A stretch of DNA of 64,000 nucleotides from Aerosakkonema funiforme BLCC-F2 (GTDB lineage Bacteria > Cyanobacteriota > Cyanobacteriia > Cyanobacteriales > Aerosakkonemataceae): NCBI RefSeq assembly GCF_041929185.1, contig NZ_JBHFNO010000043.1. One strand, given 5' to 3'. Every line of letters begins with the position of its first letter. Positions within the stretch are counted from its first letter, which is position 1. Below the pieces are notes generated by a model, which had not been told where the DNA came from, searched no databases, and saw only the letters and a program-made list of their open reading frames with translations. Made by a program: the position numbers and the translations under genes. Positions 37,724-38,496 of this stretch are shown here, piece after piece.

Positions 37724-38023
37724 TTACTTAGAAGCTAATTCCAGTTCTTCAGTATAAAACTCCCCAATTTCCAATGGAAAGCTTAAACTATTTCCCTCGC
37801 GACTTTCTGAAACTAGCTGATAAATTTTCACTCCTAAATTCTGATTAAATCTAAAGAGATTCAGAAAATATTCATCTCCCCGAATTCCTTGAATTTGGCG
37901 ATCGGCAACAGTAGCAGTTTCCACATTTAAAGTAAATTCATGTTGCTTTGTACCAATTAACACTACAACATTAAAACCAAGGTTTATTGATGTAGGTTCG
38001 ATAGAAATAACTTGTGTTTTCAT
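37724..38023 (-). CDS. Small hypothetical protein (99 aa) translationally coupled downstream of the papain-like peptidase gene; candidate immunity/partner protein
   Basis: 4-nt overlap (ATGA) with 38020..38496; no recognisable domain. Confidence 0.5.
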   Translation of the reverse strand: MKTQVISIEPTSINLGFNVVVLIGTKQHEFTLNVETATVADRQIQGIRGDEYFLNLFRFNQNLGVKIYQLVSESREGNSLSFPLEIGEFYTEELELASK

Positions 38024-38496
38024 TGTTCTATCCAGTAAACAGCTTGTCCATTCCAGTATTCTAAAAAATCACCTTTTCTCATCCTGTACTTAGTCGCATC
38101 CCAAGGGTCACGAATCAGAACTGTATCATTGTAAATGCCATCCACGACTACCATGTGCCCTATTCTAGCTCCTGCTCCCCAAAGTACGGCAATCCAAGAC
38201 CCTGTGGCGTTCAAAGCATCGAAAGATGAAGCACTGACAAAGTTACCTAACCATTTTCCCCCATCATCTGGGTTGAGTTGATTAAGTGCATCGGCTAACA
38301 ATTCTGGCCAAGTGGGTGCTGTTGCTAGTTTCTCAATATCAGCTTGACTAATATTATTAATGCCTCGACTTTTCAAGATCATTTCACCGCAGGCAGAACC
38401 GCAAGAGCGAATACTTTGCTGTTGTACAATGGTGGGATCGGTAACTTCATCAATAACCCGCCAATTACCACCCGCACCAGAAAGTTTAGGGTGCAT
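38020..38496 (-). CDS. Standalone papain-fold cysteine peptidase domain protein (Peptidase_C39-like / C39_2-type)
   Basis: Catalytic-Cys context SIRSCGSACGEMIL at the helix N-terminus and a downstream GHMVVVDG His context. At 158 aa there is room for the protease domain only. Confidence 0.55.
   Translation of the reverse strand: MHPKLSGAGGNWRVIDEVTDPTIVQQQSIRSCGSACGEMILKSRGINNISQADIEKLATAPTWPELLADALNQLNPDDGGKWLGNFVSASSFDALNATGSWIAVLWGAGARIGHMVVVDGIYNDTVLIRDPWDATKYRMRKGDFLEYWNGQAVYWIEQ

Follow-up and report, generated by a model that had tools for sequence, protein, structure and literature searches.

A probable delivery-less toxin/immunity operon of the Cpe1-Cpi1 (StbD-CT/StbI) family in Aerosakkonema funiforme and other cyanobacteria

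Introduction

The Tox-PL-C39 class of polymorphic toxin systems was predicted by Zhang et al. in 2012 (PMC3482391), and consists of C39/ComA-related peptidases used as the C-terminal toxin of RHS (rearrangement hotspot) and filamentous-haemagglutinin proteins. Two toxin/immunity pairs built around such a fold are known in detail, Cpe1-Cpi1 from the type VI secretion system (T6SS) of Escherichia coli ATCC 11775 (PDB 9L5U) and StbD-CT/StbI from a CdiA-type protein of Citrobacter rodentium (PDB 8SSK and 8SSM). Here we describe a gene pair in a 64,000-nucleotide stretch (hereafter the window) of contig NZ_JBHFNO010000043.1 of the cyanobacterium Aerosakkonema funiforme BLCC-F2, in which a gene for a 158-aa C39-type peptidase overlaps a gene for a 99-aa partner. 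The pair is likely a self-contained operon of the Cpe1-Cpi1 (StbD-CT/StbI) family that works intracellularly, in the manner of a toxin-first type II toxin-antitoxin (TA), addiction or abortive-infection module.

Cpe1 cuts the G101-G102 bond of GyrB and the G97-G98 bond of ParE, and intoxicated cells grow into filaments in which chromosome segregation fails (Song et al. 2025, PMC12136450). Cpi1 competes for a hydrophobic exosite on Cpe1, with a dissociation constant of 8.6 nM versus 343 nM for the substrate, and leaves the active site open (PMC12136450). StbD-CT cuts the HAGGK motif of nucleotide-free GyrB only, and it undergoes a redox-dependent self-cleavage in cis at GG/AGGNW that releases the peptidase from its entry domain (Nhan et al. 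2026, 10.64898/2026.05.07.723447). The Song et al. dataset holds two cyanobacterial entries, both RHS-fused (PMC12136450), and the standalone clade described below is missing from it because only T6SS-linked and contact-dependent inhibition (CDI)-linked homologues were kept.

Results

The gene pair

The toxin gene lies on the minus strand at 38020..38496 and encodes a C39-type papain-like cysteine peptidase with no delivery domain. The putative immunity gene follows on the same strand at 37724..38023 and encodes a protein with the Cpi1/StbI fold (b1-b4, a1, a2, b5). The two share an ATGA at 38020..38023 (minus strand), which joins the toxin TGA stop to the partner ATG start in an arrangement expected for translational coupling; the plus strand reads 'tcat'. 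A first-pass annotation of the window, made from its letters without database searches, had reported both open reading frames (ORFs) and their overlap, and both were recovered at these coordinates. The 4-nt overlap is common to most homologous loci.

The same annotation had seen no transporter or targeting domain in the 158-aa protein, and the present analysis bears this out. The toxin ORF measures 164 codons from stop to stop and therefore excludes an N-terminal domain hidden upstream, and the N-terminus, MHPKLSGAGGNW, has no hydrophobic stretch when judged by eye from the sequence. Argonema galeatum has a protein 95% identical to the peptidase, and the partner is 100% identical to an Aerosakkonema funiforme protein. 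Neither protein matches a defence family in PADLOC or NCBIfam, and no Rfam family is found in the window.

The toxin

Several results place the 158-aa protein in the Cpe1/StbD family. First, Pfam identifies Peptidase_C39 (E=4.3e-10; score 40 bits, gathering cut-off 22) and, more weakly, Peptidase_C70 (AvrRpt2) and Peptidase_C39_2. Second, phmmer searches of PDB sequences return StbD (E=1.8e-34, 45% identity over query residues 4-154) and Cpe1 (E=3.5e-32, 42% identity). Third, the AlphaFold2 model (mean predicted local distance difference test score, pLDDT, 90.3; predicted template modelling score 0.88) finds 8SSK/8SSM and 9L5U as its best PDB matches by Foldseek, at 42-46% identity and E of about 1e-17, and superposes on 8SSM_A and 9L5U_A/B with template modelling (TM) scores of 0.80-0.91 and a root-mean-square deviation of 1.7-2.0 A. 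The C39 domains of ComA, PCAT1 and LahT are more distant, at 14-28% identity and E = 1e-5 to 1e-9.

The two motifs on which the first-pass annotation had based its papain-fold assignment, SCGSACGEM (Cys32) and GHMVVVDG (His114), are present, and the assignment itself is upheld by the Pfam match, by the model and by the position of Q26, C32, H114 and D130 on the catalytic residues of the solved toxins. The Cys32 codon (TGC, 38401..38403, minus strand) aligns to Cpe1 C362 and StbD C183 and is Cys in 86 of 87 homologues. The His114 codon (CAC, 38155..38157, minus) aligns to StbD H258 (84 of 85 homologues), and the Asp130 codon (GAC, 38107..38109, minus) to StbD D275 (81 of 83). Together with Q26, the oxyanion Gln, this set is kept in about 97% of copies across some 85 homologues.

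The mature toxin domain begins at A8-G-G-N-W12, encoded at 38461..38475 on the minus strand and placed by the StbD/Cpe1 alignment and by the conservation of G9, G10 and W12, which are invariant in one homologue alignment and nearly invariant among 90 matches. Just seven residues, MHPKLSG, precede it. From its sequence, the 158-aa protein would thus be essentially the mature toxin domain alone, with a seven-residue linker vestige. It shares the AGGNW start, the fold and the Cys-His-Asp triad with Cpe1, and resembles StbD-CT in the self-cleavage region, where SG-AGGNW (S6-G7) stands in place of the GG/AGGNW of StbD-CT. StbD-CT, unlike the window toxin, has a VENN pre-toxin and loses its YajC-dependent entry domain by self-cleavage; processing of the 158-aa toxin is probably unnecessary because it starts seven residues before the mature domain and its P2 Gly is replaced by Ser. 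It also differs from Tox-PL-C39, which is defined by fusion to trafficking domains (PMC3482391), in being a free-standing domain.

The exosite residues of Cpe1 (L387, M390, A408, M426, W428 and V434) align to P61, P64, F86, V104, W106 and I112. Four of the six equivalents (F86, V104, W106 and I112) are hydrophobic, and P61 and P64 fall in a gap-rich stretch of the alignment.

The partner

The 99-aa partner has no match in Pfam, NCBIfam or PADLOC. Its AlphaFold2 model (pLDDT 90.3) is a single compact domain with the topology b1-b2-b3-b4-a1-a2-b5, which matches the published description of StbI, a five-stranded sheet with two helices (10.64898/2026.05.07.723447). Foldseek against the PDB returns Cpi1 (9L5U_C/D) and StbI (8SSM_C/D) as the sole significant matches, with TM scores of 0.61-0.69; the next match has E=0.28. 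An exhaustive profile search of 1.84 billion proteins recovers a partner family of 160 cluster representatives, mostly standalone proteins of 85-130 aa, with an F..F.FNQ core and conserved Pro83 and Gly87. A broad profile of this family searched against 177,635 PDB sequences ranks Cpi1 first (E=0.022) and StbI second (E=0.077), both in co-linear alignments, and a narrower profile reaches StbI at just E=1.1. Finally, the ORFs that follow RHS- and CdiA-fused toxins align by hhalign to the cyanobacterial partner family with 92% probability (E=5.9e-7). Each of these lines is modest; they agree in pointing to the 99-aa protein as the probable cognate immunity protein of this toxin family.

The first-pass annotation had recognised the layout of a toxin/immunity or a deconjugase/inhibitor pair. 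The former is supported, as the closest solved structures are the complexes 8SSM (StbD-CT/StbI) and 9L5U (Cpe1/Cpi1) and the partner shares the fold of the cognate immunity proteins; the latter found no support. Two other roles for the partner were considered and rejected. As a Gly-Gly leader substrate it would need a leader motif, and none is present in the 99-aa protein; as an active-site inhibitor of the staphostatin or chagasin type it would need another fold, and it matches only the exosite-binding Cpi1 and StbI.

Some partners are longer, at 150-190 aa, with a C-terminal extension of ~60 aa that has no Pfam match (loci L031:6480-6947, L025:648-1142 and L046:6483-7010, and others including P0042 and P0050). 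The extension is common in Microcoleus and Coleofasciculaceae.

Distribution and evolution

A locus scan with one genome per species returned 74 loci. The homologous peptidase genes, at 42-95% identity, lie in unrelated neighbourhoods, and each overlaps a downstream gene for a protein of about 100-123 aa. The co-occurrence that the first-pass annotation had proposed as a check is observed throughout: every intact standalone peptidase (160-185 aa) is directly followed by a partner-family ORF (63 cyanobacterial loci before de-duplication). About 60 cyanobacterial loci carry the standalone pair, and nearly all standalone loci are cyanobacterial, in genera that include Microcoleus, Hormoscilla, Coleofasciculus, Scytonema, Calothrix, Prochloron, Crocosphaera and Chroococcus. 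One pair sits on a Chroococcopsis plasmid.

The two proteins have diverged together (58 unique pairs, r=0.86, Mantel p about 0.001), with the partner evolving faster: mean identity across these pairs is 39% for the partner versus 54% for the toxin. Among the window, Argonema and Floridanema, the ratio of nonsynonymous to synonymous substitution rates (dN/dS) stays at 0.08-0.12 in the peptidase and reaches 0.19-0.22 in the partner. The pair is therefore conserved, co-diverging and under purifying selection in cyanobacteria.

Several genomes hold two or three paralogous pairs, and at locus L030 two pairs lie less than 6.5 kb apart. The toxin gene is split or truncated at L071:5860-6486, L081:5983-6487, L017 and L077. 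In L071 and L081 the partner beside the damaged toxin gene is intact, which suggests occasional decay to immunity-only loci.

Fused and N-terminally extended relatives

Outside cyanobacteria the toxin domain is the C-terminal tip of large proteins, each followed by a remote homologue of the partner. In Cardiobacterium hominis the architecture is Fil_haemagg_2, PT-VENN and C39; RHS-repeat proteins end in the toxin domain in Lysobacter, Kofleriaceae, Streptomyces and Lentzea, as do further long proteins in Kingella and Gilliamella. A Leptolyngbyaceae genome encodes a Phage_Mu_F protein with a C39 domain. The Rhs and filamentous-haemagglutinin fusions that the first-pass annotation had suggested seeking thus exist, since the same domain ends RHS, CdiA (Fil_haemagg and PT-VENN) and MuF proteins. 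These architectures agree with the predicted Tox-PL-C39 class (PMC3482391).

In several cyanobacterial and metagenomic sequences, extra N-terminal modules join just before SGAGGNW (P0003 at L009:88-852, P0005 at L007:5001-5807, L082:5011-6474 and P0021 at L013:1-657). These modules are a DUF5615 (PIN-like) domain, a ~110-aa helical domain, Phage_Mu_F and a fragment starting DPFGL that resembles the end of an RHS core. The locus with the ~110-aa helical module also has a MafB19-deaminase and Imm1.

A DISARM-linked variant

[quoted passage not shown] These fusions are found in [Phormidium] sp. LEGE 05292 (L021:5980-12482), an Oscillatoriales metagenome-assembled genome (L029:5956-12474), Coleofasciculus (L037:5980-12475) and Calothrix (L047:4263-10798). 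The C39 gene overlaps the start of the fusion gene by ATGA, and DrmB comes next. Three of the four loci also have, upstream, a C5-methyltransferase and a ~815-aa protein without a family match. The C39 copies keep the Q/C/H/D residues. This gene architecture suggests a toxin/immunity pair wired into a DISARM-like defence system. A survey of YprA/DrmA-family systems mentions no peptidase, and neither a connection between C39 and DISARM nor a protease-type gyrase TA in cyanobacteria was found in the literature searched, in which coverage was incomplete.

Genomic neighbourhood

No RHS, CdiA or T6SS genes are found in the window. Among the 150 nearest flanking genes of 45 homologous loci, 181 different Pfam families are represented, and the 25 most frequent of them include no RHS, T6SS, CdiB or exporter family and no conserved third gene. 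Seven of nine very long neighbours were scanned and none is a carrier; they are STAND (signal transduction ATPases with numerous domains) NTPases, MetH, a nonribosomal peptide synthetase-like enzyme and similar proteins. Neither the window nor the flanking-gene scan links an ABC transporter or precursor-peptide gene to the pair.

The families that do recur beside the 45 loci are Uma2 (10), PIN (4), AbiEii-like ATPases (3), NB-ARC (3) and McrBC, CHAT, DUF433 and ParE (2 each), and PemK and NACHT genes also recur near pairs. Such neighbours are typical of conflict islands. Beyond its small island, the rest of the window encodes two-component and chemotaxis proteins, SdhA, CobN/ChlH and similar functions.

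Other neighbours of the pair are as follows. A ~465-aa NB-ARC STAND NTPase lies near the C39 pair in three loci (window 34967-36364, minus strand; L001 9843-11249; L009 1229-2575), and the homologues in L001 and L009 have an N-terminal HTH_VMAP-M9 domain. Proteins with nSTAND1-WD40 and NACHT domains flank the pair in L043 and L020. At window 36595-37602 (plus strand), a 335-aa protein without a Pfam match contains tandem DD(G/E)FS repeats with a 48-nt period (repeat family D3); its tail, VPEPS followed by a hydrophobic stretch and KRSR, resembles a PEP-CTERM sorting signal, and the gene is conserved beside the pair in Argonema. At window 30665-33325 (minus strand), beside two Uma2 genes, this cyanobacterial chromosome carries a gene for a homologue of the eukaryotic Major Vault Protein; the product has 886 aa and matches Vault repeats (E=5.6e-66) and MVP_shoulder (E=1.3e-54).

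Flanking repeats

The first-pass annotation had placed the pair within a repeat-delimited cassette array. The repeats are real, and they are a feature of the lineage and no property of the module. A 27-nt core, CTCTCCATTCTGCACCAAAACTTTTAG, with a HIP1 (GCGATCGC) hairpin occurs in four copies, at 37638, 38628, 39380 and 40853, where none is expected by chance. Copy 1 spans 37633..37706, directly 3' of the operon, and copy 2, which contains a nested insertion, spans 38623..38714 on its 5' side; copies 3 and 4 span 39375-39448 and 40848-40921. Two of the four copies thus bracket the pair, and together they divide small gene sets between 37.6 and 40.9 kb. The syntenic Argonema locus (L001) has three copies between cassettes (6833-6859, 7165-7191 and 8548-8574), and there an extra PemK cassette separates the pair from the 335-aa gene. 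None of the about 70 other loci contains the repeat, which is therefore lineage-specific and outside the module. A reading of these repeats as integron attC-like sites is not supported, as they are limited to the window and Argonema, their hairpins are HIP1-based and no integrase is found among the window neighbours scanned.

Directly after the partner stop codon, copy 1 as read on the minus strand gives a GC-rich HIP1 hairpin with UUUU behind it (folding z = -4.6 on the minus and -6.8 on the plus strand). This copy may serve as a terminator; a terminator scan with a simple consensus did not call it.

Other small cassettes lie between the repeats in the window, at 38753-39387 (minus strand) and 39614-40786 (plus strand). 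They comprise two overlapping ORFs of 56 and 155 aa, an ORF of 78 aa, and one of 119 aa that directly adjoins the gene for a 148-aa DUF7689 protein (E=1.9e-37). A 'YNCIAWAAG' motif in the DUF7689 protein is reminiscent of a papain/NlpC-type catalytic Cys. These small cassettes may be further toxin/immunity-like pairs.

Discussion

Because the 158-aa toxin lacks both a delivery domain and a linked carrier and is translationally coupled to the partner, it would be made in the cytoplasm of its producer and normally be held inactive by the co-translated partner. A toxin held in this way would thus belong to a TA-, addiction- or abortive-infection-like module and not be a secreted weapon. By analogy with Cpe1 and StbD-CT, it would cut the Gly-Gly of the HAGGK ATP-binding motif in GyrB/ParE and so abolish supercoiling and chromosome segregation. 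From the same analogy we infer that the partner binds the toxin; it would do so at the hydrophobic exosite beside the active site, competing with the substrate and leaving the active site unplugged. The bicistronic operon, the lack of export signals, the co-divergence of r=0.86 and the TA-rich neighbourhoods all fit a type II TA module. CcdB, ParE and FicT offer a functional analogy, as small two-gene cytoplasmic modules directed against type II topoisomerases (10.64898/2026.05.07.723447), with differences. Their folds are unrelated, and they act by binding and poisoning or by adenylylation as opposed to the proteolysis of the Cpe1/StbD-CT family. Their antitoxins contain DNA-binding and labile regions that are not detected in the 99-aa partner, and the window pair is toxin-first.

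Several points weigh against this interpretation. The sequence similarity between the partner and Cpi1/StbI is weak (E=0.02-0.08, about 15% identity to Cpi1), and Pfam and NCBIfam scans detect no DNA-binding domain in the partner. Two Cpe1 exosite residues, L387 and M390, align with prolines in the gap-rich stretch, and the exosite positions vary across the clade (the equivalent of W106 is Arg or Lys in about 26 of 83 aligned sequences), so that some members may have a different target; the substrate specificity of the 158-aa toxin is one that we infer. A gyrB gene or HAGGK motif is absent from the window and the homologous loci examined. The carrier search was confined to the 64-kb window and the flanks of the homologous loci. 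In the literature searched, neither this protein nor another cyanobacterial member is the subject of an experiment, and the pair is only a candidate for classical type II TA behaviour.

A broader and more tentative proposal is that a contact-dependent protease toxin has been domesticated in filamentous and other cyanobacteria as an intracellular suicide or growth-arrest immune effector. The standalone pair would then be a gyrase-cleaving TA or abortive-infection module, and the Cpi1-like domain fused to DrmA a leash that keeps the protease inactive on the helicase and, on sensing of foreign DNA, releases it to cut GyrB. This is possible, with the odds against it. If true, the TA toxins that target gyrase would gain their first protease, and DISARM its first attached proteolytic effector.

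It is also conceivable, at a clearly lower probability, that a polymorphic toxin system keeps the locus as an orphan or reserve cassette, with a toxin that is idle in its present place and available for recombination into an RHS or other carrier gene elsewhere in the genome, or that the locus is kept mainly for immunity against neighbours that inject this toxin. In favour, other phyla have the domain as the tip of polymorphic toxins, cyanobacteria have RHS- and MuF-fused forms (PMC12136450 S1 Table), and standalone toxin cassettes are a hallmark of polymorphic toxin systems (Zhang et al. 2012, PMC3482391). Some genomes hold several copies, and the intact partners beside split or truncated toxins in L071 and L081 fit retention for immunity. 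However, no carrier gene is found in the window or beside 45 other loci, and the toxin gene has its own ATG just seven residues before the toxin domain, so that a pre-toxin homology arm for recombination is absent. Retention for immunity alone would not be expected to leave the toxin under stronger purifying selection than the partner, or its catalytic residues in about 97% of copies.

Export of the unfused toxin as a 'cargo' effector that kills competitors, by an unlinked T6SS-like, contractile-injection or WXG/type VII-like machine, is improbable. In favour, one extended form, P0005 in locus L007, has an extra ~110-aa helical N-terminal domain and lies beside a MafB19-deaminase/Imm1 cassette. 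In contrast, carrier, adaptor and secretion genes do not recur near standalone pairs in the flank scans, and the N-terminus of standalone forms is just 3-20 residues. To our knowledge, canonical T6SS is rare or absent in cyanobacteria, which also counts against export of this kind.

Least probable is a housekeeping role as a ComA/LahT-type enzyme that matures peptides by removing their double-glycine leaders, with the 99-aa protein as its substrate, chaperone or regulator: the Pfam C39 family, the triad, the Gly-Gly cleavage preference and the fold are shared with the exporters of the AMS/PCAT type (ComA, PCAT1 and LahT), but those matches are far weaker than the toxin matches (14-28% versus 42-46% identity), their C39 domains are fused to ABC transporters and process exported peptides with no immunity partner, no transporter or precursor-peptide gene is linked to the pair, the partner has an immunity fold and no Gly-Gly leader, and the NCBIfam bacteriocin_ABC model scores the 158-aa protein at 14.7 bits against a cut-off of 523.85.

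The intracellular toxin/immunity operon therefore remains the preferred interpretation. Because earlier work has identified its family and characterised it biochemically, the pair is not categorically new; no description of the cyanobacterial clade without delivery domains, or of the DrmA fusion, was found in the literature searched. The partner family, with about 160 cluster representatives, no Pfam entry and members all named 'hypothetical', can now be annotated. Through the rare DrmA fusion, a polymorphic-toxin pair is tied to an anti-phage system in a concrete way that can be tested. Killing by the Cpe1/StbD-CT family through cleavage of the ATP-binding loop in gyrase and topoisomerase IV was shown only in 2025-2026, and the family's members have so far been described solely as secreted weapons of T6SS and CDI. 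A conserved clade without delivery genes would show the same enzyme used inside its producer, and would add proteolysis to the TA-like attacks on gyrase.

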